Source: Gammaproteobacteria bacterium (GTDB lineage Bacteria; Pseudomonadota; Gammaproteobacteria; SZUA-21). From it: a DNA stretch of 14,364 nucleotides. The first letter of the stretch is position 1, and the number at the start of each line of letters is the position of its first letter. A program made the translations under genes and the position numbers. Under the pieces are notes generated by a model that worked only from the letters and a program-made list of their open reading frames with translations, was not told the DNA's origin and ran no database searches. Where the stretch lies: positions 1-14,364 of the forward strand of contig JALUUZ010000135.1 in the NCBI GenBank assembly GCA_027021095.1. The letters are read 5' to 3'. This document shows positions 1 to 13,979 of the stretch, one piece after another.

Positions 1-469
1 CGTCGTCCAACTCGACCTGCGCCATGGTGCGGTGTTGGACGTCGACGTCGTTGTGCATGGCCTGCACCAGGATCTTTGTGGCTTGTTCACAGGAGAAAGG
101 CACCAGGATGCCATCGTATAGATCCTTGCCGGGGTTGACGCCGATGACGCGCTGTCCGCTGAGGTACTTGGCGGTGTTGGCCACCAAGCCATCCTGCCCG
201 ACTGCGACGACCAAGTCCCCGGGCTCGAACAAAAACCGGTCCAGTTCCTGCCGTTTTAGCAGGTTGCGGCGCCAATCGCCGGGAATGGCGGAGATGAGTC
301 TATGCAACGCGGACCGGTGCTGTCTGTCGCGTTCTTCGATCAAGTCGATGGACTGACCACGCTCGGCCAGGAAAAACTCAGCCTGGCCACGGGTGGCGTG
401 CCGCGCAAGCAGTTGTTCGTATTCTGTTTCACGCGTGACGATCACGACCCGTGGTACGAGGGCATTCAT
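1..469 (-). CDS. NAD kinase-like (ATP-NAD kinase/DAGK_cat fold) protein, N-terminal ~156 aa. The gene continues past the window's 5' edge. It is not in the ORF track because it is edge-truncated.
   Basis: Reverse-strand frame open from the ATG at 469..467 through position 1. Translation: MNALVPRVVIVTRETEYEQLLARHATRGQAEFFLAERGQSIDLIEERDRQHRSALHRLISAIPGDWRRNLLKRQELDRFLFEPGDLVVAVGQDGLVANTAKYLSGQRVIGVNPGKDLYDGILVPF... The 'DLVVAVGQDGLV' block corresponds to the GGDG(T) motif of NadK/PpnK-type kinases, degenerate here (GQDG). The canonical NadK 'NxGxLGFL' block is replaced by 'NPGKDLYDGIL'. The ATG overlaps the TGA of the upstream SPFH gene (ATGA), indicating translational coupling. Confidence 0.6.
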   Translation of the reverse strand, partial: MNALVPRVVIVTRETEYEQLLARHATRGQAEFFLAERGQSIDLIEERDRQHRSALHRLISAIPGDWRRNLLKRQELDRFLFEPGDLVVAVGQDGLVANTAKYLSGQRVIGVNPGKDLYDGILVPFSCEQATKILVQAMHNDVDVQHRTMAQVELDD

Positions 470-1662
470 CCTTCAATCCCGGTGTTCTGCAGTTTTTGCG
501 CGCCGGCAGCAAACAAATCCGCGAGGTTGGTCGACAGCACATCCGGGGTGATGTTGATGTGGTCGATCTTTTGCAACTTGCCGGCGATTTCCTGTAGCGC
601 CAGGGCGAATACCACATTGGCTGGCAGTGATTCATAGACAGACATGCGTTCTTTTTCGCCCGCTGCTTCGGCCAGCCCGACCGCTTGTATTTTTTCCGCT
701 TCAGCTTTACCCTCCAGGCGGATTGCATCGGCGTCTGCCGCCGCCAGGCTGCGCCGTACCTGCGCCTTGGTTTCTGCAGCGAGTTTTTGTACATCGCTGT
801 CGGATTGTGACATGATCTGCCTGCGTTCCCGCTCAGCCTCTGCTTCCAGTTTTGCACGGGAAGAAACAGCTTCAGACTGTATCCGTTCCCGTTCGATAAG
901 TGCCTTGACCGAGGCTTCTTCAACGGCGGACTGTTCCTCTACACGCCGGCGCTCATTTCTGCCTTGTTGTGAGATCAGGCTTTCTTCGCGTGCGGCCAGT
1001 TCGATTTTGCTTTGCAATTCATTTTCAGCAATGGCACGTTCTTTTTCGACGGCGAGTGCCCGGCGTTGAAAAGTCGCTTCATCTGCATTCTGCTGGATAC
1101 GCTCTCTAGTCGGAACCTGCAGGGCCTTTTCCAACTCGGCGACCGGGCTTATTTCGTTGATGCCCAGGCTGACGAGCTTCAAGCCCATTTCGGTAAAGAC
1201 GGTTTCACTCTCCATGCCCTGCTCGATGGCGTTGAGAATTTTTTCCGGTCCGTCCGTAATCAGCTGCCGTACTTCTTTGCTTGCGACATAGCGCGCTGCG
1301 TGCTTTTGCACCGTATTGGTGAACAACGCAGCCAGTTGTTCAAGAGGTGCTTTGCGGTGCAACCCGGTATCCAGGTCGATCGAGAAATCGATGCGTTCGG
1401 CCAGGCAGTCCGGGTCGGTGACACGGTAAATGAGCTCACCCTGAACGGTCGCCTCTTGAAAGTCACTCGTACGGCCTTGAAAAATAAATTGTAATTCACG
1501 GTCGTCCGTCGGCACTTCTGCGATACTGGTGCCCATGGAAGCGAACCAGAATGCAAGGCCCTTGCCGGATTTTACCAGGCGGCCATTTCTGAAACGCCGC
1601 ACGTGCATATTCGGCTCACTGCGCAGGTGTTTGAAGAAAAGTGTTTTTTTTATGTCCGTCAT
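466..1662 (-). CDS. SPFH/band-7 (flotillin/stomatin-like) domain protein with a long Glu/Ala/Arg-rich coiled-coil. No N-terminal transmembrane segment.
   Basis: 398-aa ORF. The N-terminal ~180 aa have the SPFH fold signature (HVRRFRNGRLVKSGKGLAFWF...ELIYRVTDP...). The central ~150 aa are heptad-like EA/ER-rich (RALAVEKERAIAENELQSKIELAAREES...AEAERERRQ...). A strong SD, AAGGGAGGGG, lies 5 nt upstream of the ATG at 1662. It is 16 nt downstream of the nadA stop. Confidence 0.75.
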   Translation of the reverse strand: MTDIKKTLFFKHLRSEPNMHVRRFRNGRLVKSGKGLAFWFASMGTSIAEVPTDDRELQFIFQGRTSDFQEATVQGELIYRVTDPDCLAERIDFSIDLDTGLHRKAPLEQLAALFTNTVQKHAARYVASKEVRQLITDGPEKILNAIEQGMESETVFTEMGLKLVSLGINEISPVAELEKALQVPTRERIQQNADEATFQRRALAVEKERAIAENELQSKIELAAREESLISQQGRNERRRVEEQSAVEEASVKALIERERIQSEAVSSRAKLEAEAERERRQIMSQSDSDVQKLAAETKAQVRRSLAAADADAIRLEGKAEAEKIQAVGLAEAAGEKERMSVYESLPANVVFALALQEIAGKLQKIDHINITPDVLSTNLADLFAAGAQKLQNTGIEG

Positions 1663-1678
1663 GTTTGCCCCTCCCTTG

Positions 1679-2611
1679 TCAGGCCGCGTTTTTCGCGGAG
1701 CGTTTTTTGCTGAAGTTCAGCATCCGTTCAATTGGTGCCCGGGCTTTTTCGATCGTTTCATCATCGAGATAGTCGATGACAAAGCCCTTGCCTTGTTGTG
1801 CGCGTACAACCAGGTCGACCGTGTTGCGCTTCATGTACGGGCAGGCATTACACTGACAGCCTGTATAGATCGGTGCCTGACGCAGATTCAGTTCAGGCCG
1901 AAGTTGGCGCATGTTGTGCAGCAAACCTTCTTCAGTCGCGATAAAGAGGGTTGTCGAGTCCGGGTCGCCTTCGAAGTTTTTCACCCAGTCCAGCATCTGC
2001 TTGGTGGAACCGACCATGTCGGCATGCAACAGCACCGGCAGTGGCGACTCGGGGTGTGCCAGCAGGTATGCTGTGCCCTTCGCGTTGGCCTGCTCGATCA
2101 TCCTGTTGATTTGTTCGTGTTTGAATTTATCGTGCACCTCGCAAACCGCGTTCCACACGGGCATGTCGTATCCATACTGGTAATTCAGATAGGCGCCCAT
2201 GTTGCGGTCCGGCGAGAAAATGACTTTTTTACCTTGTGCATAGAGTGCGGCAATAATGTCATCGACGTTGCGGGACGTGACGACCCAGTCTGAAACGGTT
2301 TTGTGTTCCGCGCTCGAATTGATATAACTCACGTGCACGCAGTCGGCATGTCGTTCACGCCACTGTTTCAGTGCGTCGATATCGGTCTGCGTGACCAGCG
2401 AACAGGTGGCGCCCTGGTCTGGCAGGATCACCTGTGCGTGCGGGTTCAGCATTTTGGCGGTTTCTGCCATGAACTGAACCCCGGCAAAAACGATACGGTC
2501 TGCGCGTTCACGTTGTGCGATCAGCGACAGCTCCAGGCTGTCACCGACATAGTCCGCCATCGCCTGCACTTCAGGGACAGTGTAGTAGTGTGCCAATGTC
2601 AGTGTGTTCAT
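1679..2611 (-). CDS. nadA: Quinolinate synthase A (de novo NAD biosynthesis)
   Basis: 310 aa. Clear NadA family similarity throughout (LAHYYTVPEVQAMADYVGDSLELS..., VHVSYINSSAEHK, FSPDRNMG, HPESP, CQCNACPYMK). SD GGAGGTG lies 6 nt upstream of the ATG. It starts 14 nt downstream of the nrtR stop. Confidence 0.9.
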   Translation of the reverse strand: MNTLTLAHYYTVPEVQAMADYVGDSLELSLIAQRERADRIVFAGVQFMAETAKMLNPHAQVILPDQGATCSLVTQTDIDALKQWRERHADCVHVSYINSSAEHKTVSDWVVTSRNVDDIIAALYAQGKKVIFSPDRNMGAYLNYQYGYDMPVWNAVCEVHDKFKHEQINRMIEQANAKGTAYLLAHPESPLPVLLHADMVGSTKQMLDWVKNFEGDPDSTTLFIATEEGLLHNMRQLRPELNLRQAPIYTGCQCNACPYMKRNTVDLVVRAQQGKGFVIDYLDDETIEKARAPIERMLNFSKKRSAKNAA

Positions 2612-2625
2612 GAGACACCTCCTGC

Positions 2626-3291
2626 TTACTTGATTATTTCAACCCTGCCAGGGTCGATGACGCGATAGAGTTTGGCCGGGCGGTGTGCACCCTGCCTTTT
2701 TTCTCTGCCGGTTTCTTCGATCTGTTCCAGCGCCAGTATCCATTTACGAAAGTTCCGGCGGTCGAGTTCTTCGCGAAGAATGATTTCATAGACATCCTGC
2801 AGCTCACTCAAGGTGAATTCCTGCGGCATGAACTGAAACGCAATCGTCGAGTAGTCGAGCTTGGCCACGAGCCGTTTATGGGCCATGGCAACGATCTGCC
2901 GATGATCGAAAGCCAGTTCCGGCAATGTGTCCATGTCAAACCAGTCCACCGCCTCGGCATCCGTTGCGGCCCGCAGCACCATCTGGTCTGAAGCCGCCAA
3001 GGCATAGTAGGCCACTGTTACTACACGCTCGCGCGGGTCGCGGTCGACCGCACCGAATGTGTAGAGCTGTTCGAGGTAAACGCCCTCGATTCCTGTTTCC
3101 TCGGCCAGTTCACGCCGCGCAGAGGATTCCAGGTCCTCGTCTATCTGCATAAATCCGCCGGGCAAGGCCCATGTCCCCTTGAAAGGTTCACTGCCCCGCC
3201 TGACCAGCAATAATTTCAATTGCTTGTCACGGATCGTAAACAGCACGATATCGGTGGTGATGGCAGGGTGTGGAAACTCGTATTGATACAT
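2626..3291 (-). CDS. nrtR: Nudix-related transcriptional regulator of NAD metabolism (NrtR family): N-terminal Nudix-fold ADP-ribose-binding domain plus C-terminal winged helix
   Basis: Nudix box remnants (GTWALPGGFMQIDEDLESSARRELAEETGIEG) followed by the NrtR-type C-terminal domain (LDYSTIAFQFMPQEFTLSELQDVYEIILREELDRRNFRKWI). Sits immediately upstream of nadA in the same operon. I chose the start at 3291 (MYQYEF...) rather than the track's 3324. Reasons: 3291 has the SD AAAGG 7 nt upstream, while the 3324 ATG has no SD and overlaps the predicted -10. Confidence 0.7.
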   Translation of the reverse strand: MYQYEFPHPAITTDIVLFTIRDKQLKLLLVRRGSEPFKGTWALPGGFMQIDEDLESSARRELAEETGIEGVYLEQLYTFGAVDRDPRERVVTVAYYALAASDQMVLRAATDAEAVDWFDMDTLPELAFDHRQIVAMAHKRLVAKLDYSTIAFQFMPQEFTLSELQDVYEIILREELDRRNFRKWILALEQIEETGREKRQGAHRPAKLYRVIDPGRVEIIK

Positions 3292-3313
3292 CGCGCTACC
3301 TTTGCGTACTTGA

Positions 3314-3351
3314 TACACTAACATGATAATGTATTATTTACGCAAAGTCAA
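3314..3351 (-). promoter_or_regulatory. Candidate sigma70 promoter of the nrtR-nadA-SPFH-NADK-like operon. On the minus strand: -35 TTGACT (3351..3346), 17-nt spacer, -10 TATCAT (3328..3323).
   Basis: Read directly from the minus-strand sequence TTGACTTTGCGTAAATAATACATTATCATG. Flanked by the 9-bp inverted repeat CTTTGCGTA / TACGCAAAG (3300-3308 and 3339-3347). Confidence 0.35.
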
Positions 3352-3412
3352 GGCTGCCCGGTGCTCTTGCATGGGTGGCATATAACTTGTTGATATTAAA
3401 TGGATAGCTTGT

Positions 3413-4720
3413 TTACGCGCCCAGGCCGGCCCGGTGCCGTTGAATCAGTATGCCAGCGAGCACGAGCAGGCATGGCAGCAGCAGCGCATAGGCCAGGGTA
3501 AGGAGTGTGATCGTGCTGTCGCTGTAGTGGAAGCCGTGCTGGCTCAGGCGTACCGGGCGGGAGATACCGTTCAGCGCTTCATGGTGGCTGAGCCAGTTGA
3601 AGGCCTGCAGGCCAAGGAAGCGGTTGATCCCGAGTCGCAGGTAGTTGTTGCTGAGAAAATCGCTGTCACCGAACACGATGATGCGCTGTGCAGCGCCTGG
3701 CCCCGGCGCGCGGTTTCGTTGCAGCGCGAGACCGATGGCAAAGGGCCCGGCCCGGGTGCTGTCGTGCTGCTTCAGCCAGTGCGACGCCTGTGTGGAGACG
3801 ATGGTGAAGCTGCGGTAGTTTTTTTTGCGTTCGAGCGTCAGGGCACTGGCGAGAATGAACAGCGCGTCATAGGACTGCAGGTCCTTGCGCGCAAAGATCC
3901 TGGGGCCGAAGCGGCGTGTCTTGATCAGCCATGTCGGTTTGCCGTGGCGGGTTTTTGCCATCAGTATCCCCGGCAGGCGCTGGATGCCGAGTTTACTGGC
4001 CAGTGTCTCCAGCCCGGGCCGTGCTTCCGGGTCCTGCAGCCAGAGCAGGTTGCCGCCGGCCCGCAGGTACCTCAGCAGCAGCGAGATTTCCTGTGCGCTG
4101 AACGCGGTCTTGGGGGCGGCCAGCACCAGGACACTAGTGTTGGCCGGGATGGCCGGCACACGGCGCAGGTCCAGGGTCTGTATCCGCGCATTGCGTTTTT
4201 TCAGTAACGCCGCAAAGGCAGAGTAGCCGCTTTTACTCGTATCGAACGGTGAGCGTTCCTGGTGGCCGGTGGTAAAGACGATCCAGTTGTCTTTGCCGTA
4301 GGCGAGTTGCAGCAGCGTGCTGCCGAACGATTCCTCGTCCAGCACGCGCAGTTTTTTATGCCGTCCCTGGTATTCGATGATCAGTTCCCTGGTTGCGACC
4401 ACACCGTAGCGTAACGCGAACTTGGTATCCTGCATCTGGTCGACGAATTTCAGCTTGATATCCGGTTTGATACGTTGGAAACGGGCGATGAAACGGCTGA
4501 TCTGTTTGCGGACGTCGGCGGCTTTGGGTGCGCCCTGGGCGTTGGAACGGGTGATAAAACCGTAGACCGTGACAGGCGAGTTGAGCGTCGACAGCAGGTC
4601 GACGCTGGCGCGTGACAGCGAATTCTTGTTGCCGGCGCTCAGGTCAAAGGCGAAGAATTCGTAGCGGCTGAACCAGGCGGCGGCCGCCAGCAGTAACAGG
4701 GTGATGAGTCTAGCCTGCAT
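3413..4720 (-). CDS. GldG-like auxiliary component of an ABC-type transport system (COG3225 family). N-terminal signal/anchor and C-terminal TM helix.
   Basis: 435 aa. N-terminal hydrophobic MQARLITLLLLAAAAWF and C-terminal TM LLTLAYALLLPCLLVLAGILI. The large periplasmic body is typical of GldG-like proteins that partner with ABC-2 permeases. Immediately downstream of the ATPase and permease genes. SD AAGGGGG lies 6 nt upstream of the ATG. Confidence 0.65.
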   Translation of the reverse strand: MQARLITLLLLAAAAWFSRYEFFAFDLSAGNKNSLSRASVDLLSTLNSPVTVYGFITRSNAQGAPKAADVRKQISRFIARFQRIKPDIKLKFVDQMQDTKFALRYGVVATRELIIEYQGRHKKLRVLDEESFGSTLLQLAYGKDNWIVFTTGHQERSPFDTSKSGYSAFAALLKKRNARIQTLDLRRVPAIPANTSVLVLAAPKTAFSAQEISLLLRYLRAGGNLLWLQDPEARPGLETLASKLGIQRLPGILMAKTRHGKPTWLIKTRRFGPRIFARKDLQSYDALFILASALTLERKKNYRSFTIVSTQASHWLKQHDSTRAGPFAIGLALQRNRAPGPGAAQRIIVFGDSDFLSNNYLRLGINRFLGLQAFNWLSHHEALNGISRPVRLSQHGFHYSDSTITLLTLAYALLLPCLLVLAGILIQRHRAGLGA

Positions 4721-4731
4721 TGCTCACCCCC
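4710..4731 (-). repeat. Partial repeat copy (terminal 19-21 nt, GGGGTGAGCAATGCAGGCTAG on the minus strand). It provides the gldG-like SD region and ATG.
   Basis: 19-nt perfect identity with 4875-4893 (reverse orientation). 20 of 21 nt identical with the minus-strand copy at 4912..4892. Confidence 0.75.
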
Positions 4732-4845
4732 TTTCTACTGCGACGGCGCCATGGCACGCCCTGGCTGGCTTTCGCTCGGTCGGCGTGCTCGACATAGTGC
4801 CGGCTATGCCTGCGCGCTCCTCGGTCGCGAAAGCCACCCAGGCCG

Positions 4846-4893
4846 CACCCTTGCACCGTCTCGCGACGAACGGTGGTGAGCAATGCAGGCTAG
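4846..4893 (+). repeat. Intergenic repeat copy A (full): CACCCTTGCACCGTCTCGCGACGAACGGTGGTGAGCAATGCAGGCTAG
   Basis: Shares a ≥37-nt core with copies at 12116-12153 and 13861-13910 (reverse), with 2-3 mismatches. A diverged copy lies at 10928-10966. Confidence 0.8.
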
Positions 4894-4910
4894 CCCGCAT
4901 TGCTCACCAC
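4872..4910. repeat. Perfect 14-bp-stem hairpin/palindrome GTGGTGAGCAATGC-aggctagcccg-GCATTGCTCACCAC. It is formed by the end of repeat copy A and an inverted partial copy that encodes the permease C-terminus.
   Basis: Read directly. The loop itself contains the palindrome GGCTAGCC. The permease stop TAG is the CTA at 4890-4892, in the loop. Confidence 0.85.
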
Positions 4911-5657
4911 GCTGCTGCGGCTGAAACGCTGGAAACGCAGCACGGTCAGGTAGAGAAAGAATACCGTGACCAGCACGAAATACAGCAGGTCTACCGAGCT
5001 CCACAGGCCGGCGGTCGGCAGATCGAGATGTCCGAGCAGCGACACGAACTGGATCAGCTGCTCGATCCAACCGACTTTCAGGCTGGCAAAGATCTCGATA
5101 AACACAAAGAAAAGCAGGACAAATGTCGCACTCAGCAGCGCGATGACCGGTTGTGTGGTCAGGCTCGACAGAAACAATGCTATCGCGCAATAGGCCAGTA
5201 CGGCCAATACCGTGCCGGACCAGGCACTGAACACGGTCCCGAGGTCGATATTGCCGCCGGGCATCACCCCGGCCGCTGTCAGCAGCATCAGTGCCAGCAT
5301 ACACAGCAGGAACATCAGCAGGCCGAGGAATTTGCCGAGCACGAGCTGTGTCATGCTGACAGGCTTGGTCAGCAGAAAAAGCAGGCTGCCATTGCGCCGT
5401 TGCAGTGTGACCGACCAGGTGGTCAGCGCCGGTACCAGCAGCAGGACAAAATAGAGCGTCAGCGCGAAAAAGAGTACGATGATTTCATAGGTCGGCCCCT
5501 TGGCGAGCGTCGCGGCGTAGTGCAGTTTGATTTTGTAGACACGCATCAGGAAAAACAGCCCTATGCCCATCGCCAGCTGCACAGCCGCGAGCATAAACCA
5601 GCCCAGCCTGGTTTTGAACAGGGCGCTGAATTCATGCCTGGCGATCCACAGCGTCAC
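4890..5657 (-). CDS. ABC-2 family transporter permease (GldF-like)
   Basis: 255 aa. Six predicted TM segments, ABC-2 permease-like. The GTG start at 5657 overlaps the TGA of the upstream ATPase gene (GTGA). The C-terminal six codons and the TAG stop lie inside the repeat hairpin at 4890-4912. Confidence 0.7.
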   Translation of the reverse strand: MTLWIARHEFSALFKTRLGWFMLAAVQLAMGIGLFFLMRVYKIKLHYAATLAKGPTYEIIVLFFALTLYFVLLLVPALTTWSVTLQRRNGSLLFLLTKPVSMTQLVLGKFLGLLMFLLCMLALMLLTAAGVMPGGNIDLGTVFSAWSGTVLAVLAYCAIALFLSSLTTQPVIALLSATFVLLFFVFIEIFASLKVGWIEQLIQFVSLLGHLDLPTAGLWSSVDLLYFVLVTVFFLYLTVLRFQRFSRSSVVSNAG

Positions 5658-6664
5658 CGCGACTGCCGCCTTTGTGCCGCCGGGGTGCGGGCAGCGGTGC
5701 TGTTGCCGCTGTCGTCTGTGGCCTGCAGTGCCTGGTTTTCAGCGTCAAGCGCCTGTGTGAACAGCTCTTCCAGCGACTGCTGCTGTGGAGTGATTTCGGC
5801 GATGTGCCAGTTGTGCTGGTTGGCCAGCTTGATGATGGCCTGGGTCGTGCTGTTGCGCTGTCGGCAATGGACCAGGTAACTCTGGTCGGGTCGGGCATCC
5901 ACCTCGCTGACGCCGTCGAGTCTGCGCAGCTGCCCGATATCAGGCGGTGTCTCGAACCGGACCTTGAGCAGCTCAGTGCGGGCGTGATTTTGCAGTGCCG
6001 CCGCCGGGCCGTTGTAGACGAGCCTGCCCTGTTTGAGGACTGCCAGGCTGGTGCAGGTCTGCCCGACTTCGGCCAGCAGATGGCTGGACAGGATGATGCC
6101 GCTGGTTTTCCCTAGAGTCTGCAGCAGCTGCCTGATGACTTTGACCTGTAGAGGGTCCAGGCCGTCGGTGGGCTCGTCGAGCAGAATGATGTCAGGCTGG
6201 TGTATGATCGCCTGTGCGAGATTGGCGCGCTGCAGCATCCCCTTGGACAATGAACTGACCAGCCGGTTTCCGAGTTTTTCCAGGCCGCACAGCTGCCTGG
6301 TCTGCTCGAGACGTTCACGCCAGTCTGCCGTCCTTCCGCGGCGGCTGAATCCAAGCGCGTAACGCAGGTTTTCGTCGATGGTCAAAGAGGGATATAAGAC
6401 GTTGCGGTCTGGCTGGTAGCCAATGTGCGCGCGCAGCCTGTGCGTGTCGTGGTGCAGCGGCTGGCCCAGGATTTCGATGCCGCCGGCAGTCGGCCTCAGC
6501 AGGCCACTGAGCAGTTTGAGCAGGCTGCTTTTGCCGGCACCGTTGGGACCGAGCAAGCCCAGTATTTCGCCACGCTGCAACTGCAGGTTGATGTTTTCCA
6601 CGCCCAGCCTGTTGGTATAGTGATAACTCAGGTTGGTGGTTTTGATCAGGATTTCTTCGGTCAT
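5654..6664 (-). CDS. ABC transporter ATP-binding protein (GldA-like)
   Basis: Walker A GPNGAGKSS, ABC signature LSKGMLQRANLA, Walker B IILLDEP, H-loop SSHLL. The track ORF begins at a TTG (6757). I trimmed to the ATG at 6664 (MTEEILIKTTNLSYHY...), which lies just before the conserved N-terminus. Confidence 0.8.
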   Translation of the reverse strand: MTEEILIKTTNLSYHYTNRLGVENINLQLQRGEILGLLGPNGAGKSSLLKLLSGLLRPTAGGIEILGQPLHHDTHRLRAHIGYQPDRNVLYPSLTIDENLRYALGFSRRGRTADWRERLEQTRQLCGLEKLGNRLVSSLSKGMLQRANLAQAIIHQPDIILLDEPTDGLDPLQVKVIRQLLQTLGKTSGIILSSHLLAEVGQTCTSLAVLKQGRLVYNGPAAALQNHARTELLKVRFETPPDIGQLRRLDGVSEVDARPDQSYLVHCRQRNSTTQAIIKLANQHNWHIAEITPQQQSLEELFTQALDAENQALQATDDSGNSTAARTPAAQRRQSR

Positions 6665-6774
6665 GGACCAGGTATCAATCAGTTTGTTCTTTTTTTTTGC
6701 AGCATGATTCGGGCCAGATTGGACGGCGCCAGGGTTTGGCGGAATAAAAACCCGCAATTTGGTAAGATTGTGTA

Positions 6775-8748
6775 ATGAAGTTGCTTGGTGTCGATACCGG
6801 TGGAACCTTTACGGACTTTGTGTACTACGATGGCCGGCGGCTGCGCCTGCACAAGACCCTGTCGACGCCGCATGCGCCGGAACAGGCCATCTTACAGGGG
6901 TTGACCGACCTGCAGTTGAACCTCGAAGACCTGGATATCGTGCACGGTTCGACAGTAGTGACCAATGCAGTGCTGGAAAGGAAGGGAGTCAGGACCGTCT
7001 ATATTACCAACCAGGGGTTTGCTGACCTGCTGACCATCGGCCGCCAGGCCCGGCGCCGGTTGTATGCGCTGCAGCCGCAGGCTGACGAGCCGCCGGTCGC
7101 GGCGGAGCTTTGTCTCGAGACCGGGGGCAGGCTGGGCGCAGACGGCAGCGTACTGCAACCGCTCGAGCCACACCAGCTCGATACCCTGCGCCGGCAGGTC
7201 GAGCAGCTGGCGCCGGCTGCCGTGGCGATCAACCTGCTGTTTTCCTATCTCGACGATCGTTTCGAAAGGCAGATCGAAGAAGTGATGCCGGACTCTGTGT
7301 TTGTTTCACGTTCTTCACAGGTACTGGCTGAAATGGGTGAGTATGAGCGTGGCATCGTGACCTGGCTCAATGCCTGGATAGGGCCGTTGGCACAGCAGTA
7401 CCTGCAGCGCCTGGAGCAGCAGGTTGCACCGGCACGCCTGACCGTGATGCAAAGCCATGGCGGCACCATGGCCGCCAGCCAGGCCGGTCGGCATGCGGTC
7501 GGTATGTTGTTGTCCGGCCCGGCCGGCGGCTTGAAAGGCGCCCAGTATATCGCCGGCCTGAGCGGCAGGACGAGACTGCTGACACTGGACATGGGCGGAA
7601 CCTCGACGGATGTCGCGCTGATCGATGGCGACATCAGCCTGACCACCGAGGGTGGTATCGACCGTTACCCGGTCGCGGTGCCGATGGTCGACATGCATAC
7701 CATCGGCGCCGGAGGGGGCTCGATCGCACGGGTCGATGCCGGGGGGCTGCTGCAGGTGGGTCCGGAATCTGCAGGCGCCGCCCCGGGACCTGCCTGCTAT
7801 GGCAGGGGAGGTGAACAGCCGACGGTGACCGATGCCAACCTGGTGCTCGGCCGTATTCCGGCAGACCGGTTTCTTGGTGGACGGATGAGCCTGGACCCGG
7901 CCGCAGCGGAGGCCGCCGTCGGCCGCCTGGCCGCACAGCTTGGTGTCAGCCGCCTGGAGTGTGCCGAGGGTATCGTGCGTGTCGCCAATGAGCACATGAG
8001 TGGTGCATTGCGCAAGATCAGTGTCGAACGCGGCATCGATCCGCGGGGGTTTACACTGGTCTCATTTGGCGGCGCCGGTGGTCTGCATGTGTGTGCACTG
8101 GCGCAATCGCTCGAGATAGGAAAGATACTGATACCCCGCTATGCCGGGGTGTTGTCAGCGCTGGGGATGCTGGTGGCGCCACGTTCGAGGCAGCTGTCAC
8201 GTACGCTCAACACAAGACTTGAAACCGCTGACACCGATACGATCGAGGCGGTGTACGCGGCGCTGATCCGTTCCGGCACAGCAGAACTCCTGGCAGAGGG
8301 CATCGCGCGTGAGGAGCTGCAGATACAGCGGCTCGCGGACCTGCGCTATCTCGGGCAATCTTATTGCCTGACCCTGCCGTGGCAGCAACCGGCGGCGCTG
8401 GCGGACAGTTTTCACCAGGCGCATCAGCAGCGTTATGGGCATGATCTGGATGAGCCGGTCGAGTTGGCGACACTGCGCGTCAGCCTGTTTGCCAGGCCGC
8501 GCCCCTTGGTGCTGGACGAACCTGGCGGGCACGGTATACAGCCACCGTCTTCGTTACCTCCATCGGCAAGCGGAGGCCTTGTACACTACCTGCGGGATCG
8601 GCTTAAACCGGGTGAAAGACTGACAGCACCGGCGCTGGTGATCGAATCGGTGGCGACCACCTATCTGGCCGAGGGCTGGGAGGGCTTTTGCGATGCGGAT
8701 GGCAACCTGTTGCTGCACAGGAAAAGTACCGCGGGATGCGCCGATTGA
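6775..8748 (+). CDS. hyuA: Hydantoinase A / N-methylhydantoinase A / 5-oxoprolinase A-subunit family protein (ATP-dependent). A standalone gene. No partner hyuB-like gene was found in this window.
   Basis: 657 aa. N-terminal MKLLGVDTGGTFTDFV (hydantoinase/oxoprolinase N-terminal domain). Central ASKHA-like glycine-rich motifs (LDMGGTSTDVALI, GAGGGSIARVDAGG). Family-typical length. SD GGTAAG lies 8 nt upstream. Confidence 0.85.
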   Translation: MKLLGVDTGGTFTDFVYYDGRRLRLHKTLSTPHAPEQAILQGLTDLQLNLEDLDIVHGSTVVTNAVLERKGVRTVYITNQGFADLLTIGRQARRRLYALQPQADEPPVAAELCLETGGRLGADGSVLQPLEPHQLDTLRRQVEQLAPAAVAINLLFSYLDDRFERQIEEVMPDSVFVSRSSQVLAEMGEYERGIVTWLNAWIGPLAQQYLQRLEQQVAPARLTVMQSHGGTMAASQAGRHAVGMLLSGPAGGLKGAQYIAGLSGRTRLLTLDMGGTSTDVALIDGDISLTTEGGIDRYPVAVPMVDMHTIGAGGGSIARVDAGGLLQVGPESAGAAPGPACYGRGGEQPTVTDANLVLGRIPADRFLGGRMSLDPAAAEAAVGRLAAQLGVSRLECAEGIVRVANEHMSGALRKISVERGIDPRGFTLVSFGGAGGLHVCALAQSLEIGKILIPRYAGVLSALGMLVAPRSRQLSRTLNTRLETADTDTIEAVYAALIRSGTAELLAEGIAREELQIQRLADLRYLGQSYCLTLPWQQPAALADSFHQAHQQRYGHDLDEPVELATLRVSLFARPRPLVLDEPGGHGIQPPSSLPPSASGGLVHYLRDRLKPGERLTAPALVIESVATTYLAEGWEGFCDADGNLLLHRKSTAGCAD

Positions 8749-8909
8749 GTACAAGCGGAAAAGCCAGGCTGGGCCGGTGTGCCGGGTGAGTGTATCTGTT
8801 AAGATATCGCTAACCAAGTCAGCCCCGATCCGCTATACTTTGCGGACCAAAATAGGAGTATTTTCCCTACAGTTTTAGTGGGAGATTTTTCTCTGGACCC
8901 TTGGCAGTG

Positions 8910-8949
8910 AATACTATAGTATTGCCAGCAATATGATGGTTTTTATAAC
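8910..8949 (+). promoter_or_regulatory. Candidate desaturase promoter (-35 TTGCCA 8922-8927, -10 TATAAC 8944-8949). A perfect 14-bp palindrome AATACTATAGTATT (8910-8923) overlaps the -35.
   Basis: Read directly from sequence. The palindrome is perfect. The region is AT-rich and lies 35-75 nt upstream of the desA ATG. Confidence 0.35.
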
Positions 8950-8983
8950 CCCTTGAAAGATAAAGAAGATATAGGCCCTCCGT

Positions 8984-10192
8984 ATGATAGATTCAATATT
9001 GGACTTTTTGCATAACGGCCTTACTGGTTTCAGTATTGGCGCAATGTTTATTACCGCTTTGATCGCGGTGCAGTTTACGATTTTCTGTGTGACGCTGTTC
9101 CTGCACAGGTGTCAGGCGCACAGAGGCATAGAATTTCATCCTGTGTTGGCCCATATCGTGCGATTCTGGTTATGGATTGCAACCGGGATGATCACCAAAG
9201 AGTGGGTGGCGATTCACCGTAAACACCATGCGACCTGCGAGACCAAGGAGGACCCGCACAGCCCGAAGATCTATGGCATCCGCAAGATTCTGCTCGAAGG
9301 CTCCGAGCTCTATCGCAAGGCCGCCAAAGACCAGGAACTGCTCGAGCGGTACGGCCACGGCACGCCGGACGACTGGATCGAACGCCATGTGTATACCAGG
9401 CATCGTATTCTCGGCGTGATCCTGATGATGTTTGCCAGTATTGCTGCATTCGGTGTCCTCGGTCTGACTTTCTGGGCCTTTATGATGATCTGGATTCCGT
9501 TCTGGGCGGCCGGTATGATCAACGGCACCGCGCACTATGTCGGTTACCGTAATTTCGAGACGCCGGACACCTCGACCAATCTGTATCCGCTGGCGATCTG
9601 GATCGGTGGGGAGGAGCTGCATAACAATCACCATTCCTTTCCGAGTTCGGCGAAGTTTTCGATCAAATGGTGGGAGTTCGATATCGGCTGGTTGTACATC
9701 CGTGTGCTTGGTTTTTTCGGCCTGATCAAGGTCAAGAAGGTCGCGCCCAAGGTCTATATCGATTCCGGCAAGGATTCGATCGATATGGAGACGATCAAGG
9801 CGATCGTCGTCAACCGGGTCAATGTGATGGCCGACTATGCGCGGCAGGTGATTACGCCGATGGTCAAGAAATCATGGCGCGAAATGCCTTCAGCGGCCAA
9901 TTTCAGTGTACGCAAGGTCAAGTCATTGCTGGTACGCGAGCACAGCATGATGGACCCAAGCTCTGAAAAGGCATTGAACGTAGTGCTGAGCGACAACCAG
10001 AGCCTGAAAACCATCTACAATTTCCGCATCCAGCTGCAACAGATCTGGGACCGGGCGGCGGCCAGTCACGAAACACTGGTCCAGGCATTGAAAGACTGGT
10101 GTGTACAGGCCGAGGCAACCGGGATCAAAGCGTTGCAGGACTTTGCACGCAGCCTGCATGGTTATACACGCGCTGTACCGACAAGCGTTTGA
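8984..10192 (+). CDS. desA: Membrane acyl-lipid/acyl-CoA delta-9-type fatty acid desaturase, with a ~150-aa C-terminal extension
   Basis: Three His boxes in canonical spacing (HRCQAHR, HRKHHA, HNNHH). Hydrophobic segments flank them. The overall 402-aa architecture resembles Pseudomonas-type DesA. Confidence 0.85.
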   Translation: MIDSILDFLHNGLTGFSIGAMFITALIAVQFTIFCVTLFLHRCQAHRGIEFHPVLAHIVRFWLWIATGMITKEWVAIHRKHHATCETKEDPHSPKIYGIRKILLEGSELYRKAAKDQELLERYGHGTPDDWIERHVYTRHRILGVILMMFASIAAFGVLGLTFWAFMMIWIPFWAAGMINGTAHYVGYRNFETPDTSTNLYPLAIWIGGEELHNNHHSFPSSAKFSIKWWEFDIGWLYIRVLGFFGLIKVKKVAPKVYIDSGKDSIDMETIKAIVVNRVNVMADYARQVITPMVKKSWREMPSAANFSVRKVKSLLVREHSMMDPSSEKALNVVLSDNQSLKTIYNFRIQLQQIWDRAAASHETLVQALKDWCVQAEATGIKALQDFARSLHGYTRAVPTSV

Positions 10193-10240
10193 TCGCATGC
10201 TGGCGGTTCACGGAGGAACCGTTTGCTATCACCAATAAAA

Positions 10241-10272
10241 AACCCGGCATCGTCATGATGCCGGGTTTTTTT
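10241..10272. terminator. Bidirectional rho-independent terminator shared by desA (+) and rpmG (-)
   Basis: AACCCGGCATC-gtcat-GATGCCGGGTT is a perfect 11-bp stem. It is preceded by A6 and followed by T7, so it can function on either strand. Confidence 0.65.
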
Positions 10273-10295
10273 GTTTGGGCTGCCTTGCGTGTTCG

Positions 10296-10466
10296 TTACT
10301 TGATCTTGGCTTCTTTGTAAGCCACGTGCTTACGGACCACCGGGTCGTATTTCCTGACTTCCATCTTTTCCGGGTGGGTACGCTTGTTTTTACTAGTGGT
10401 ATAGAAGTGCCCGGTTCCGGCAGAAGAAACCAGCCTGATCTTGTCGCGCTTGCTTTTACCAGCCAT
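10296..10466 (-). CDS. rpmG: 50S ribosomal protein L33 (56 aa). Absent from the ORF track because it is under 60 aa.
   Basis: Translation [56 protein letters not shown] is near-identical in pattern to E. coli L33. The SD AGGA is upstream. Confidence 0.9.
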
Positions 10467-10511
10467 TGCTCTGTTCCTGTAGTTCGTTGTAAACCTGTGT
10501 GCTCAAAAAGT

Positions 10512-10748
10512 TCAGACCCGGACGCCGCGTTTGCGTATCTCGCTCAGTACCTGGTCGATGCCTTTTTTGTCGATAATCCGTAAGCCTTTTGACGACAGGC
10601 GCAGTTTGACCCATCGCTTTTCGCTTTCGACCCAGATTCGATGGGTCTGCAGATTCGGCAGGAAGCGTCGCTTGGTTTTATTGTTGGCATGTGAGACATT
10701 GTTGCCTGACATCGGACGTTTGCCTGTTACCTGACATACTCTGGACAT
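10512..10748 (-). CDS. rpmB: 50S ribosomal protein L28
   Basis: [34 protein letters not shown]...[14 protein letters not shown] has high identity to E. coli L28. Confidence 0.95.
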
Positions 10749-10801
10749 TGTACTCGCCTTCTAGTATTTGAATCCTGATACATTATAAAACAAAGCGGGT
10801 G

Positions 10802-10830
10802 ATTTTACCTGCCCATTGTCCGAGATGCAA
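10802..10830 (-). promoter_or_regulatory. Candidate rpmBG promoter on the minus strand: -35 TTGCAT (10830..10825), 17 nt, -10 TAAAAT (10807..10802)
   Basis: Minus-strand sequence TTGCATctcggacaatgggcaggTAAAAT lies about 55 nt upstream of the rpmB ATG. Confidence 0.4.
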
Positions 10831-10927
10831 GCAGCACCATGTAACTCATTGTTTCTTGGTAGATAGCACCTGATCTCATACCTTTTTACTCCATTCATAA
10901 CGAGGCCGCGCAAAGGCATGCCTTCAC

Positions 10928-10966
10928 GCGGTCTCGCTGCGAACAGTAGCGAGCAGTGCGGGCTAG
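10928..10966 (+). repeat. Intergenic repeat copy D (diverged, ~29/39 identity to copy A). It ends in GGGCTAG, whose CTA is the stop codon (minus strand) of the His-rich lipoprotein gene.
   Basis: GCGGTCTCGCTGCGAACAGTAGCGAGCAGTGCGGGCTAG versus ACCGTCTCGCGACGAACGGTGGTGAGCAATGCAGGCTAG. Followed by the palindrome AAGGCATGCCTT hairpin at 10903-10930. Confidence 0.55.
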
Positions 10967-11178
10967 TGGACGTCGGAGTGGACGTCGTCCTCGACGTACT
11001 CCACCGGGCCGTCGACATGGCCATAGTGGTCGTATCCGGAATGATGGCCGGTGTTGTGGCTGTTATGGCCCGAGGAATTGTTGTGACCGTGGCTGCTCCG
11101 GGTTTGCGAATGGCCTTCACATCCGGCCAGGCCGACGCTGGCAGCGGCAATCAGTGAAATCATCAGAATCTTTTTCAT
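10963..11178 (-). CDS. Small secreted His-rich lipoprotein (71 aa). Signal peptide plus lipobox LAGC. The mature ~51 aa contains 13 His and an acidic tail. Putative periplasmic metal-binding protein.
   Basis: MKKILMISLIAAASVGLAGC|EGHSQTRSSHGHNNSSGHNSHNTGHHSGYDHYGHVDGPVEYVEDDVHSDVH. Strong SD AAGGGAGA lies 5 nt upstream of the ATG at 11178. The track's longer 88-aa version starts at an upstream codon that has no SD. The TAG stop is the CTAG end of repeat copy D. Confidence 0.6.
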   Translation of the reverse strand: MKKILMISLIAAASVGLAGCEGHSQTRSSHGHNNSSGHNSHNTGHHSGYDHYGHVDGPVEYVEDDVHSDVH

Positions 11179-11337
11179 TGGTTCTCCCTTTTTTGGTTGG
11201 CTGTTGTAAAAAGTCAATACCTGACTCATCCTGATGATATAGGATGGCGAATTTCAGGGGTGATGTCCATAGAAAATCACCAAATGACTGTGAATCTTAA
11301 CGTACTCTTTGCATTTTTGGTCTTGTATAAAAATTAA

Positions 11338-12012
11338 TCAAAGCAGTCCACGCTCGGCGAACGACACCAACTCACCATCGCCAATCACAAAATGGTCGAG
11401 CACCGAGACATCCACGACTTCCAGGGTGGACTTGAGCGTAACCGTCAAAGTCCGGTCGGCCTGGCTGGGTTCGGGAATGCCCGAAGGGTGGTTGTGTGCC
11501 AGGATAACGGCCGCCGCATTGTGGTGCAGACAGCGTTTGACCAGTTCCCGCGGGTGGACGCTGGCGCCGTTGATCGTGCCGAAAAACATTTTCTCGAAGG
11601 TAATGAGTCGATAGCGGTTGTCGAGAAAGAGACAGGCAAAGATTTCCTGTTCGCAGTCTCTAAGCTCCGCCAGCAGGTAGTCTTTGCAATAGCGCGGATT
11701 GTTCAGTGTGCGCCCACGCTGCAGCTTCTCGCGTTGCTGGCGCAGATTCATCTCCATCACCGCCTGCAACAGCGCATACTTGGCGCTGCCGAGTCCGGGA
11801 ATCCGCCTGAAGTCATTGTATTTGGCCGTCAGGATATTACGCAGCCCGCCATAGCGGGAGAGCAGTTCACGTGCCAGGTCCAGCGCCGATTTGCCCTTGC
11901 TGCCGGTGCCAAGAAGAATCGCCAGCAGTTCCGAATCACTCAATGCGCTGGCACCCAGTGCCAGGAGTTTTTCCCGTGGCCGCTCCTGTTCCGGCCAGTC
12001 TTTGATGCTCAT
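11338..12012 (-). CDS. radC: RadC/YicR-family JAB-domain protein (UPF0758)
   Basis: 224 aa. N-terminal helix-hairpin-helix-like region ([27 protein letters not shown]). C-terminal JAMM motif (HNHPSG...S..D). Shows the conserved gammaproteobacterial synteny: next to rpmBG and divergent from coaBC-dut. Confidence 0.85.
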
Positions 12013-12115
12013 GCAGCAAAGCTAACCTGAGTCGGCGTGGTGCGGCAAGCCTTGCAGCTTGTTGATTCTACGAGTTGCCTGCTGTGTCCGGTTTACGGTG
12101 CCGGCCCCGTCCCCG

Positions 12116-12153
12116 CCGTCTCGCGACGAACGGTGGTGAGAAATGCGGGCTGG
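12116..12153 (+). repeat. Intergenic repeat copy B: CCGTCTCGCGACGAACGGTGGTGAGAAATGCGGGCTGG. It lies 30 nt upstream of the coaBC ATG.
   Basis: 26-nt perfect match to copy A, then 8 of 10 matching. Confidence 0.8.
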
Positions 12154-12183
12154 CGTCGGCATAATATCTGTTACAATCGGCGT

Positions 12184-13410
12184 ATGAAACAGCTGTCTGG
12201 CAAAAGAGTGTTGTTGGGAGTCTGTGGCAGCATTGCAGCCTATAAAAGTGCAGAGCTTGTCAGAGACCTGCGTGATGCCGGTGCCGAAGTCCGGGTAGTG
12301 ATGACCGAGGCCGCGACAGAGTTCATTACGCCATTGACACTGCAGGCATTGTCCGGTCACCCTGTACGTACCGGCTTGGTCGATACCGCCGCAGAGGCGG
12401 CGATGGGACACATCGAACTTGCGCGCTGGCCTGATGCCGTGTTGGTGGCGCCCGCCAGTGCGGATTTCATTGCCCGGCTGGCACAGGGCAGGGCGGATGA
12501 TCTGCTGGCCGCGTTGTGCCTGGCGACACGGGCACCGGTCGCTTTGGCCCCGGCGATGAATGCGGGGATGTGGGAGAATGCAGCAACCCGTGCAAACATC
12601 GATAAGCTGACCCGCCAGGGTGTGGCCTTTTTTGGCCCGGTTTCCGGTGCACTCGCTTGTGGTGAGCAGGGGCCGGGAAGAATGATCGATAATCGAACGA
12701 TTATCGACAAGCTGGCAGCGCTGTTTCCTTCCGCTGCGTTACAGGGGGTTGCAGTGCTGGTTTCCGCCGGGCCGACACGCGAGGCGATCGATCCGGTCAG
12801 GTATCTGAGTAACCGCAGTTCGGGTAAGATGGGTTTCGCGGTTGCCGCCGCCGCGGTCGAGGCCGGTGCGCAGGTGACACTGATCAGCGGCCCGGTTGCG
12901 TTGCCGACCCCGGAACGGGTAAAGAGAGTGGATGTCATCAGTGCTGCGCAGATGTATCGAGCGGTCATGGAGCATGCGCCGGCTCACCAGATATTTGTTG
13001 CGGCGGCGGCAGTGGCTGATTTCGTCCCGCAGGCGTTTGCACAACAGAAACTGAAAAAAGAAAAATTTTCGGCAGAGGACGGATTTGTACTCAGGCTGAA
13101 ACAGAGTCCGGATATCCTTGCCGAACTGGCCGGACGCGAGCAACGGCCTTTTCTGGTTGGTTTTGCAGCAGAGACGGAGTCGGTGGAGCAAAACGGGTGT
13201 GCCAAGCTGCAGCGCAAAAAGCTGGATATGATTGCGATCAACGATGTCAGCGAAGGCCGCGGTTTCGACCGGGATGAAAATGAATTATTGGTCTTGTGGC
13301 CAGGTGGGCGAGCGCGGCTGGAACTGGCCGGCAAGGGCAGGCTGGCACGTGAGCTGATGGGGTTGATCGCTGACAGGTACCGGGAGCACTATGAAAAAAA
13401 TACAACTTAA
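12184..13410 (+). CDS. coaBC: Bifunctional phosphopantothenoylcysteine decarboxylase / phosphopantothenate-cysteine ligase
   Basis: [44 protein letters not shown]... aligns with the E. coli Dfp N-terminus. It is 408 aa from the ATG at 12184. The track's 12037 GTG start would add 49 residues with no homology and would run through a repeat copy. Confidence 0.9.
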
Positions 13411-13846
13411 GCTGCTGAATGACAAAATCGGCAATGAAATACCCTTGCCGGACTATGCTACCGATGGTTCAGCTGGAATGGATCTGCGTGCCTGCCTGGA
13501 CGGTCCGGTGACGATTGCGCCAGGCGAGACCCGGCTCATTCCCACCGGCATCGCAATCCACCTGGATGACCCGGGTATGGCGGCGACGATCCTGCCGAGG
13601 TCCGGCCTGGGGCACAAGCATGGGATCGTGCTGGGTAACCTGGTCGGCCTGATCGATTCCGACTATCAAGGTGAGCTTTTTATCTCGTGTTGGAATCGTG
13701 GCAAAACGGCATATACTATCGAGGTGGGTGATCGAATTGCGCAACTGGTCATAGTGCCGGTCGTCAGGGCGGAGTTTGAGCTGGTGCAGGCGTTCGATGC
13801 CAGTGCGCGCGGCAGCGGAGGCTTTGGTCACACGGGACGCACTTGA
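13391..13846 (+). CDS. dut: dUTP diphosphatase
   Basis: 151 aa with typical dUTPase motifs ([38 protein letters not shown]). It overlaps the coaBC 3' end by 20 nt, as in E. coli. Confidence 0.92.
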
Positions 13847-13910: not shown

Positions 13911-13979
13911 GGCTATCAGTGATGGAGCCTCCAAGGCTTCGCAATGAGACTTTTGGGTTGTCAGCTTTGGTAGGATCGA

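Follow-up and report, generated by a model that had tools for sequence, protein, structure and literature searches.

The closest described relative of the system discussed here is an entry in Table 1 of Rodionov et al. 2008 (PMC2330246), where the arrangement 'nrtR<#>nrtX-nrtY' is listed for Proteus mirabilis, Kineococcus and Frankia with the pathway given as '?', and '#nrtX-nrtY' for Streptomyces and Hahella. The DNA that we analysed, called the window throughout, is the whole stretch of 14,364 nucleotides of contig JALUUZ010000135.1 (positions 1 to 14,364, forward strand; assembly GCA_027021095.1, Gammaproteobacteria bacterium, lineage SZUA-21). Its first 3351 positions hold a single minus-strand cluster with the transcription order nrtR, nadA, a gene for an SPFH/band-7 protein and a gene for an NAD-kinase-like protein. 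Regulator and gene order are those of the 2008 entry. The P. mirabilis locus, taken from a chromosome sequence classed with plasmids, reads nrtR(-)<>SPFH(+)-kinase-like(+) with two NrtR boxes in between. The entry, however, gives no protein family, and the co-directional nrtR and the inserted nadA of the window are not listed there. We infer from arrangement and species, not from locus tags, that nrtX is the SPFH gene and nrtY the kinase-like gene; the Streptomyces replicons are annotated 'SPFH domain-containing protein / hypothetical protein' at the match. A preliminary description of this DNA, made from the sequence alone, had taken the arrangement for undescribed, which the 2008 table corrects. 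In the literature searched, we found no later characterisation of nrtX and nrtY and no other use of these names in this sense, no paper pairing NrtR with SPFH proteins or SPFH proteins with 'NAD kinase', and nothing relevant for GQDG. New here are the assignment of the proteins to families, the finding of how widespread and how strict the trio is, the variant that includes nadA, and hypotheses of a concrete kind.

A second described system is the actinobacterial nrtR-nadA-nadB-nadC operon, where NrtR autoregulates an operon beginning with nrtR and nadA, as in the window (PMC2330246). The M. smegmatis NrtR (PMC6800001) is reported as a further example. Unlike these operons, the window has no nadB or nadC, and its nadA is embedded in an nrtR-nrtX-nrtY module. 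We propose that this module is derepressed by ADP-ribose (ADPR) and adds SPFH-scaffolded phosphorylation of NAD(H) to NAD synthesis, a reading to which we give a probability of roughly 0.55.

The nrtR-nrtX-nrtY unit and the place of nadA

Relatives of NrtY are numerous. More than 7,000 were found at 90% clustering, nearly all of them about 300 aa long and without a Pfam domain, and a profile search gave 404 clusters at 50% identity with an E value of 1e-30 or better. A scan of one genome per species yielded 551 encoding stretches, the best 80 of which were taken with 8-kb flanks, and all open reading frames (ORFs) of the fetched loci were searched by phmmer with the window proteins. Carriers belong to the alpha- and gammaproteobacteria, Myxococcota, Planctomycetota, Acidobacteriota, Actinomycetota, Chloroflexota-like bacteria and others. 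In all 78 informative loci, the gene next upstream of the kinase-like gene, and on its strand, encodes an SPFH homologue; for the two remaining loci, no upstream sequence is present. Between the nrtX stop and the nrtY start, 79 of 86 loci have either an overlap (36 loci) or a gap of at most 14 nt. The few large gaps correspond to split SPFH ORFs, probably frameshifted. The linkage of nrtX and nrtY is far beyond chance.

NrtR neighbours were counted over 73 informative loci, with flanks of about 3-7 kb upstream and up to 8 kb downstream. A homologue of the regulator adjoins the pair in 59 of them (43 upstream and co-directional, 14 divergent, 2 just downstream), and one further locus has it 3.6 kb away. 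Overall, about 82% of the informative loci are NrtR-linked, which bears out the earlier supposition that the SPFH/kinase-like pair is tied to the NAD regulon and did not come to lie there by chance. All-against-all clustering and a Pfam scan of the downstream genes of 78 loci revealed no other conserved neighbour of the trio. The clustering was noisy, with naive ORFs of high-GC loci merged into one giant cluster; the commonest downstream families occurred in 2 of 78 loci each, one of them being NAPRTase. As read from these neighbourhoods, the conserved unit is NrtR plus SPFH protein plus kinase-like protein.

Several further observations concern the occurrence of the module. It was found on plasmids, mobilisable ones included. 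A tet(J) gene stands directly 3' of the nrtY homologue in Proteus mirabilis (L083, 6635-7828), and tetR(H)-tet(H) occupies this place on the Moraxella plasmid pNP7-1 (L085, 6927-8841) and on pAST2 (L084, 6927-8841). The nrtR<>nrtX-nrtY module, of which pAST2 has a remnant only, travels with tet(H) on plasmids. Two proteins combine both parts in one chain: P0300 (574 aa) is a seemingly clean fusion of an SPFH and an NrtY-like part, with GPDG replacing GQDG and the first strand missing, and P0374 (654 aa), with an N-terminal SPFH and a C-terminal NrtY-like part, looks frameshifted. On a contig from a metagenome-assembled genome titled 'uncultured Halobacteria archaeon' (L003, CAWKAE010000023.1), the trio nrtR-nrtX-nrtY is of the gammaproteobacterial type and comes with NrtR boxes and a sigma-70 promoter, and its NrtY is 64% identical to that of the window; this contig is probably mis-binned.

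NadA of the window passes the curated equivalog thresholds for quinolinate synthase (NF006878, 319.2 bits against a cut-off of 294; TIGR00550, 271.4 against 262.9), and Pfam PF02445 scored 285 bits over residues 2-299. The order nrtR-nadA-SPFH-kinase was found in the window, in the near-identical metagenomic contig L001, and in L086 and L088. In L087 the order is nrtR-SPFH-kinase-nadA-NADAR, and on the contig of P0021 it is SPFH-kinase-nadA. Within the 8-kb flanks of the best 80 of the 551 relatives, nadA was found in none. The preliminary description had seen an nrtR-nadA operon extended by the pair. This has to be turned around, with nrtR-nrtX-nrtY as the core and nadA as the insert, present at three positions and in 0 of 80 of the wider set. 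By its distribution, nadA is a recruit into the module in the window's lineage, seen only among gammaproteobacterial relatives. Because it was independently placed at three positions around the same core, it points to a functional tie of the module to NAD synthesis.

The spacer between nadA and nrtX measures 93-127 nt in L086 and L088, compared with 16 nt in the window. In both relatives a mini-ORF of four codons, ATG AAA CCG ACA TAA, is conserved in this spacer, together with a strong Shine-Dalgarno sequence (L086 4730-4765 and the equivalent place of L088). After the operon, a NADAR-domain gene follows in L087 (8140-8715) and a DUF4291 gene in L086 (6955-7563) and L088 (6955-7575). The NADAR, DUF4291 and NAPRTase neighbours may be further links to NAD and ADP-ribose.

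NrtY and NrtX as protein families

NrtY resembles human mitochondrial NADK2 (C5orf33; PDB 7r4j, 7n29), an enzyme to be considered together with plant NADK3, and NADK2 was its best match in both sequence and fold. The best PDB sequence match was 7r4j, with E values of 2e-12 for the single sequence and 5e-17 for the profile, whereas canonical NadKs matched at about 1e-6 and aligned only over residues 83-208. An AlphaFold model from 55 sequences (mean pLDDT 87.3) had NADK2 structures as its top Foldseek matches, at TM 0.67-0.73, and NAD kinases from bacteria, yeast and the human cytosol came next; for this predicted fold, E values against NADK2 and canonical NADK structures ranged from 1e-20 to 1e-14. 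Judged by sequence and by the modelled fold, NrtY is a NADK2/C5orf33-type protein and not simply a degenerate NadK, which refines the earlier account of a non-canonical NAD-kinase-like protein. Canonical NadK identity was ruled out by scores far below the curated cut-offs and by the absence of GGDG.

Residue pairs of NrtY and NADK2 were counted on HMMER alignments, the residue roles being those given in PMC9245612 and PMC3535332. The catalytic D161 of NADK2 aligns with the invariant D93 of NrtY, the substrate-contact K76 with the invariant R13, and S306 and W319 with the invariant S192 and W205. The NE motif is represented by the invariant N164-E165. NTDP of NADK2 pairs with NPD of NrtY, 'PEEPKILFSIREP' pairs with 'PEEDKLAFYVREAFP', and the motif PEExK(L/I)xFx(V/I)RE is common to both. 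At NADK2 motif 1, PX-GXN(T/S)DP, V-I-G-V-N-P-D of NrtY aligns to P-V-I-G-V-N-T-D-P, so that Asn and Asp are kept, T/S is absent and Pro is shifted. At motif 2, S-G-X(C/M), SSSGVVVT aligns to SSGLNLC and the final C/M is replaced by T. Unlike canonical NadK, NADK2 and NrtY have an N-terminal (K/R)-T-x-YE strand with a substrate contact, NxDP (in NrtY the partly matching NPD) in place of NxGxLGFL, SSG, TGTGxxxW and the PEExK motif, and both keep the catalytic Asp and the NE motif. They differ from each other in GQDG versus GGDG and in length, about 300 aa for NrtY against 442 aa, and their identity is only 20-22%; NrtY is furthermore bacterial, SPFH-paired and NrtR-controlled. NADK2 contains a long animal-specific dimerisation insert, EMKA (PMC9245612), which, to go by the length difference alone, NrtY would lack.

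With canonical NadK/PpnK, NrtY shares the two-domain NAD-kinase fold, the catalytic Asp in an xxDG loop and the NE motif, but it has no GGDG, no NxGxLGFL spacing and no TGSTAY..SAGGP block, and it scores far below the thresholds. The positions of D189, T200 and Y202 in Mtb Ppnk are S192, T203 and W205 in NrtY, inside TGTGATGW, and SAGGP is missing. In two bona fide NAD(H) kinases, NADK2 and NADK3, the canonical Asp of the first of these positions is replaced by Ser, and the canonical Tyr of the third by Trp and Ala, respectively (PMC3535332). Two motif claims of the preliminary description can be judged here. The GQDG motif is real: GQDG(L), an unusual replacement of GGDG(T/N), was invariant in 55 of 55 family sequences. 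The NxGxLGFL block is indeed absent in its canonical form, yet it is not missing altogether, as a diverged, three-residue-longer N-P-D-x-x-x-Y-D-G-I-L aligns to it. NAD kinases are defined by the GGDG motif, in which the catalytic Asp lies (PMC9245612), and the residue following it tunes the use of polyphosphate versus ATP (PMC8553519); for a change inside the GGDG loop, no precedent was found in the literature searched. Elsewhere on the record that carries nrtY, P. mirabilis encodes a canonical NadK with 74% identity to the E. coli enzyme. Because this canonical gene is present alongside, NrtY is an accessory protein, at least in P. mirabilis.

NrtX reached 53.8 bits with Pfam PF01145 (Band_7), the cut-off being 23.6. 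Its AlphaFold model (mean pLDDT 79.9) predicts an SPFH domain at residues 1-173, the first strands of which lie at the very N-terminus, helices at 175-233 and 242-344, and a C-terminal segment conserved as 'LP..V..ALA.QE.AGKL..I.HLNITPD'. The family comes in length classes of about 340, 397 and 417 aa, which differ only by insertions of about 55 or 77 residues in the second helix (alignment A3, columns about 255-332). If NrtX forms a cage, these classes would alter its height. Foldseek matched the model to stomatin, HflK/C and flotillin (E 1e-10) and also to erlin, prohibitin and vault MVP; the sequence profile found no solved protein in the PDB. No membrane segment is predicted in NrtX, and the maximum of the 19-residue Kyte-Doolittle average has a median of 1.21 and lies below 1.6 in 79 of 84 family members. 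Identity with FloT/flotillin or HflC was ruled out, given 18 bits against 700 with the NCBIfam FloT model, the lack of an anchor and the lack of a PDB profile match.

Like the SPFH proteins that form cages or rings (HflK/C-FtsH, stomatin, flotillin, prohibitin, erlin), NrtX has an SPFH domain, long coiled-coil helices and a C-terminal segment, and the nrtX-nrtY pair is a tight two-gene unit with a partner, as are the SPFH-NfeD operons (PMC2636767). In contrast to the membrane SPFH proteins, it has no N-terminal anchor, and its partner is a kinase-fold protein, not NfeD or a membrane protease; the kinase-like gene takes this place at every informative locus. By these sequence features, NrtX is a distinct SPFH subfamily. 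Two small 'soluble' prokaryotic SPFH subfamilies were noted before, without documented members (PMC2636767), and NrtX may be a counterpart of these SPFH8/9 subfamilies of Hinderhofer et al. 2009. A cytosolic SPFH protein recruited by membrane partners has been reported in Bacillus. The membrane-microdomain association proposed in the preliminary description found no backing in the NrtX sequence; such a role is neither supported nor excluded, and a soluble or peripheral oligomer is the more economical assumption.

MVP, one of the fold matches of NrtX, contains an SPFH-like domain. Vaults are soluble cages; their interior binds NAD+ and related nucleotides and accommodates an enzyme that uses NAD (PMC12280208), and the pair MVP/PARP4 may serve as a functional analogy for a soluble SPFH assembly with an NAD enzyme. 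MVP, however, is eukaryotic, about 800 aa long and equipped with many repeat domains, and it matches NrtX at a TM of only 0.2-0.35; a closed cage of NrtX is without support.

Operon structure and probable NrtR control in the window

The four minus-strand ORFs were read from the letters of the window and their domains scored with the curated cut-offs of Pfam and NCBIfam. NrtR, NadA and the SPFH protein are above the Pfam cut-offs, and the fourth protein was placed by its sequence and fold match to NADK2, so the gene identities proposed earlier hold. So does the coupling of the genes (Table 1), with gaps of 14 nt between nrtR and nadA (2612-2625) and 16 nt between nadA and nrtX (1663-1678), and with the nrtX stop overlapping the nrtY start as ATGA (466-469). 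Both gaps contain a Shine-Dalgarno sequence, which is AGGAGG ahead of nadA. The part of nrtY beyond the window end was supplied by L001, which encodes the same SPFH protein, and the full length is 320 aa. Because no internal promoter would fit into the two gaps and translation of nrtX is coupled to that of nrtY, the products of the four genes would be made together, NrtX and NrtY in a fixed ratio. A scan of positions 1-3500 found no further promoter-like site on the minus strand within the cluster, and two weak terminator-like sites in the cluster are at chance level and lie inside coding sequence. The simplest reading of this layout is one NrtR-autoregulated transcript, nrtR-nadA-nrtX-nrtY.

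The promoter, TTGACT-17-TATCAT at 3351-3323, has 10 of 12 matches to the sigma-70-like pattern, and its TTGAC is invariant across an alignment of five related upstream regions. NrtR operators have been described as a 21-bp palindrome with a GT-N7-AC core near regulated promoters (PMC2330246). Both boxes of the window agree with this definition and overlap the promoter, the start of box 2 being 25 bp downstream of that of box 1. Across all 14.4 kb of the window, no site other than box 2 reaches 11 of 14 matches to TTAGTGT-N7-ACACTAA, and shuffles led to an expectation of 0.27 such sites. Box 1 is kept in position and core in L086, L088, L087 and L003. The succession of TTGAC overlapping box 1, a 4-5 bp gap, box 2, ribosome-binding site (RBS) and ATG is conserved in four relatives, the flanks of which are otherwise divergent. 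An AC-N8-GT palindrome, ATACATTATCATGTTAGTGTAT, was considered as an operator and dropped, the GT-N7-AC boxes being those conserved in relatives.

Boxes were found to precede the module at other loci as well, a point raised in the preliminary description, and they take lineage-specific forms. Tandem boxes with the 25-bp spacing occur in L086, L087 and L088 and in the Proteus (L083) and Moraxella (L085) loci. The Proteus and Moraxella pairs are of the TTAGTGTC type, and the gammaproteobacterial loci have TTAGTGT-N7-ACACTAA. Each intergenic region of the actinobacterial divergent loci holds two copies of TTATCGTC-N5-GACGATAA, and many myxobacterial, planctomycete and alphaproteobacterial loci have a variant box, ATATATGC-N5-GCATATAT. 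At least one locus without an adjacent nrtR, L072, still has a GT-N7-AC box ahead of its SPFH gene, which recalls the Streptomyces entry of PMC2330246, and L006 has at this place an ATATATG-type palindrome lacking the GT-N7-AC core. As far as these alignments tell, the boxes are the result of lineage-specific drift of one palindromic motif, as described in PMC2330246.

Both NrtR domains are above their cut-offs (PF21906, NrtR_WHD, 91 bits; PF00293, NUDIX, 76 bits), and the full-length PDB sequence matches were B. thetaiotaomicron AraR (5bs6, E 5e-48) and Shewanella NrtR (3gz5, E 7e-39). The nrtR ORF at 2626-3324 comprises 232 codons, and the gene call on L001 starts at the second ATG (3291), giving 221 aa. 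RBS-ATG-TAT at the 3291 start is conserved in relatives, and the ATG at 3324 falls inside the -10 hexamer and the operator; the true start is almost certainly the ATG at 3291. The Nudix signature, G-x5-E-x7-REL-x-EE-x-GI, which most NrtRs do not keep intact, is intact in the window protein and in 16 of 64 module-linked NrtRs, namely those of the window's gammaproteobacterial relatives and the actinobacterial divergent-type regulators. In NrtRs, an intact signature correlates with ADPR pyrophosphatase activity (PMC2330246). Because the signature is intact, NrtR of the window may both sense and hydrolyse its own ligand. DNA binding of Shewanella NrtR is suppressed by ADPR and 2'-phospho-ADPR, and relief of DNA binding by ADPR has been shown only for the Shewanella and Synechocystis proteins; ligands in vitro include ADPR, pADPR, NaADP and NADP(H) (PMC2330246).

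Table 1. Features of the window. Positions are those of the window's forward strand.
Feature	Position	Strand	Description
nrtR	2626-3291	-	Nudix-related transcriptional regulator, 221 aa; Pfam NrtR_WHD and NUDIX
nadA	1679-2611	-	quinolinate synthase, 310 aa; Pfam NadA, NCBIfam NF006878
nrtX	466-1662	-	SPFH/band-7 protein without membrane anchor, 398 aa; Pfam Band_7
nrtY, 5' part	1-469	-	first 156 of 320 codons, NADK2-type NAD-kinase-fold protein, GQDG; cut by window end
-35 hexamer TTGACT	3346-3351	-	best sigma-70-like site on the minus strand of 1-3500
NrtR box 1 TTTGCGTAAATAATACATTAT	3326-3346	-	21 bp, GT-N7-AC core; fills the promoter spacer
-10 hexamer TATCAT	3323-3328	-	between the two NrtR boxes, sharing the last three bases of box 1
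NrtR box 2 TTAGTGTATCAAGTACGCAAA	3301-3321	-	21 bp, GT-N7-AC core; over the likely transcription start and 5' untranslated region
ABC-2 transporter set	3413-6757	-	upstream of the operon: ATPase, permease and GldG-like ABC_transp_aux/DUF4350 protein
Desaturase/ISL3 ORF	8984-10192	+	one 402-aa ORF; Pfam FA_desaturase (22-233) and ISL3 transposase DDE domain (285-396)

The neighbours of the operon lie outside the module. The ABC-2 transporter set, an ordinary one, ends 55 nt before the -35 hexamer of the nrtR promoter. The ORF that matches both a desaturase and an ISL3 DDE domain, an odd pairing for a desaturase, was also called on L001. That contig further shows mutM (Fpg) at 12197-13015, beyond the window end, 40 nt after nrtY and on the same strand; this adjacency is not conserved at other loci, so any co-transcription with nrtY would be lineage-specific.

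Proposed function and its alternatives

In the proposed mechanism, NrtR bound to the two tandem boxes, which in the sequence cover -35, -10 and the transcription start, would shut off the whole operon, nrtR included. ADP-ribose or a related NAD-derived nucleotide, as a signal of NAD breakdown, would release NrtR by analogy with other NrtR proteins, and the co-regulated nadA argues for a NAD-derived signal. The operon would then be transcribed and its four products would appear together, with NrtX and NrtY in a fixed ratio. NadA would raise de novo NAD synthesis, the role established for its family. NrtY would phosphorylate NAD+ or NADH at the 2'-OH to NADP(H), as an inducible accessory beside the housekeeping NadK, and NrtX may use its coiled coil to self-assemble, as other SPFH proteins do, into rings or cages by which NrtY would be held, gated or localised. 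The net result would be that under NAD consumption, the cell refills NAD and diverts part of it to the NADP(H) pool.

Several observations weigh against this proposal. The closest solved relative of the window NrtR by sequence is the arabinose-binding AraR; effectors of the family are consequently not always ADPR, which calls for caution on the effector. Within the fetched flanks, 13 of 73 loci have no NrtR gene. NrtY lies below every curated NAD-kinase model, with 12.5 bits for the full length and 19.4 for the window fragment against 25.5 with PF01513, and 32.4 against 309 with the best NCBIfam NadK equivalog. The GGDG region of the NAD-kinase fold also contacts the phosphoryl donor. With an invariant Gln in place of its second Gly, donor, acceptor or reaction type could differ in NrtY. 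Contact between NrtX and NrtY is suggested by gene order and coupling only; the one clean fusion, P0300, is a single divergent case and weak evidence.

Another view of NrtY is that it is not an NAD(H) kinase and acts on ADPR (to give 2'-phospho-ADPR), on NaAD or on another dinucleotide, or that it is a non-catalytic sensor of NAD(H) or ADPR, the nucleotide made or sequestered feeding back on NrtR. The invariant GQDG, the replacement of TGSTAY..SAGGP by TGTGATGW and the failure to reach the curated NadK models would fit such a role, as would the range of nucleotides to which NrtRs respond in vitro, ADPR, pADPR, NaADP and NADP(H) among them (PMC2330246). The Nudix box, intact and probably active in 16 of 64 linked NrtRs (those of the window's clade and of actinobacteria), would likewise suit a cycle of substrate and product. 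Conversely, the catalytic and NAD-contacting residues of NADK2 are conserved in NrtY (D93, R13, N164-E165, W205), and NADK2 and NADK3 deviate at the same canonical positions and are nevertheless bona fide NAD(H) kinases (PMC3535332). We consider this alternative unlikely, though one to be kept in mind. Somewhat further from what the data favour is a picture that borrows from the vault: NrtX as a soluble vault-like cage or ring, its wall height set by the coiled coil, would enclose or gate an ADP-ribose-induced GQDG kinase NrtY, so forming a hitherto unrecognised cytoplasmic compartment with control over NADP(H) or over a phosphorylated nucleotide of the ADP-ribose type, with NrtY as the bacterial sister group that gave rise to eukaryotic NADK2 and NADK3. 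This picture is speculative and we hold it to be rather improbable.

Bacterial immunity commonly works through NAD depletion and ADPR. The subject is also touched upon in 10.64898/2026.05.01.722283, and the trio could be imagined as an immune module against phages or stress, in which a fall of NAD during infection is sensed through ADPR and answered by a kinase-like effector and an SPFH assembly. Its patchy distribution over many phyla, flanking genes that vary by genome and its presence on plasmids, mobilisable ones included, would be in line with this. PADLOC-DB 2.0, however, gave no match for NrtX and NrtY and for NrtR only the generic Nudix model PDC-S07; 2 of 78 downstream neighbours match any defence model, both of them generic Ser/Thr kinases, and tblastn found no homologue in 50,697 phage records. 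Moreover, biosynthetic genes (nadA, NAPRTase) were recruited into or beside the module, and the regulator, with its operators at the promoter, belongs to the classic metabolic kind of NrtR, all of which makes an immune function very unlikely. Least probable of all, by a small degree, appears the idea that NrtY is a redundant second NadK paralogue and the SPFH protein an unrelated, membrane-acting neighbour in a chance or merely convenient juxtaposition. NrtY does have an NAD-kinase fold with the catalytic Asp, and SPFH proteins usually partner membrane proteins such as NfeD and FtsH (PMC2636767). Such an explanation is difficult to reconcile with the SPFH-NrtY order kept across phyla (78/78) and the tight spacing of the two genes, with an SPFH protein that has neither a membrane segment nor an NfeD partner, or with the standing of NrtX as a distinct subfamily without a sequence-level relative in the PDB.

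The ADP-ribose-derepressed module with scaffolded NAD(H) phosphorylation would have consequences beyond this locus. NADP is held to arise through NAD kinase alone, each bacterium having a single NadK; NrtY would be a second such protein, widespread, NADK2-like and controlled by a sensor of NAD breakdown. Other SPFH proteins are known for their role as scaffolds at membranes, and the fold would, if true, find a wider use in a soluble member that is linked to an enzyme of metabolism. The nrtX-nrtY pair, listed as of unknown function since 2008, now has family assignments, a testable reaction and conserved operators, and it may bear on the origin of mitochondrial NADK2.

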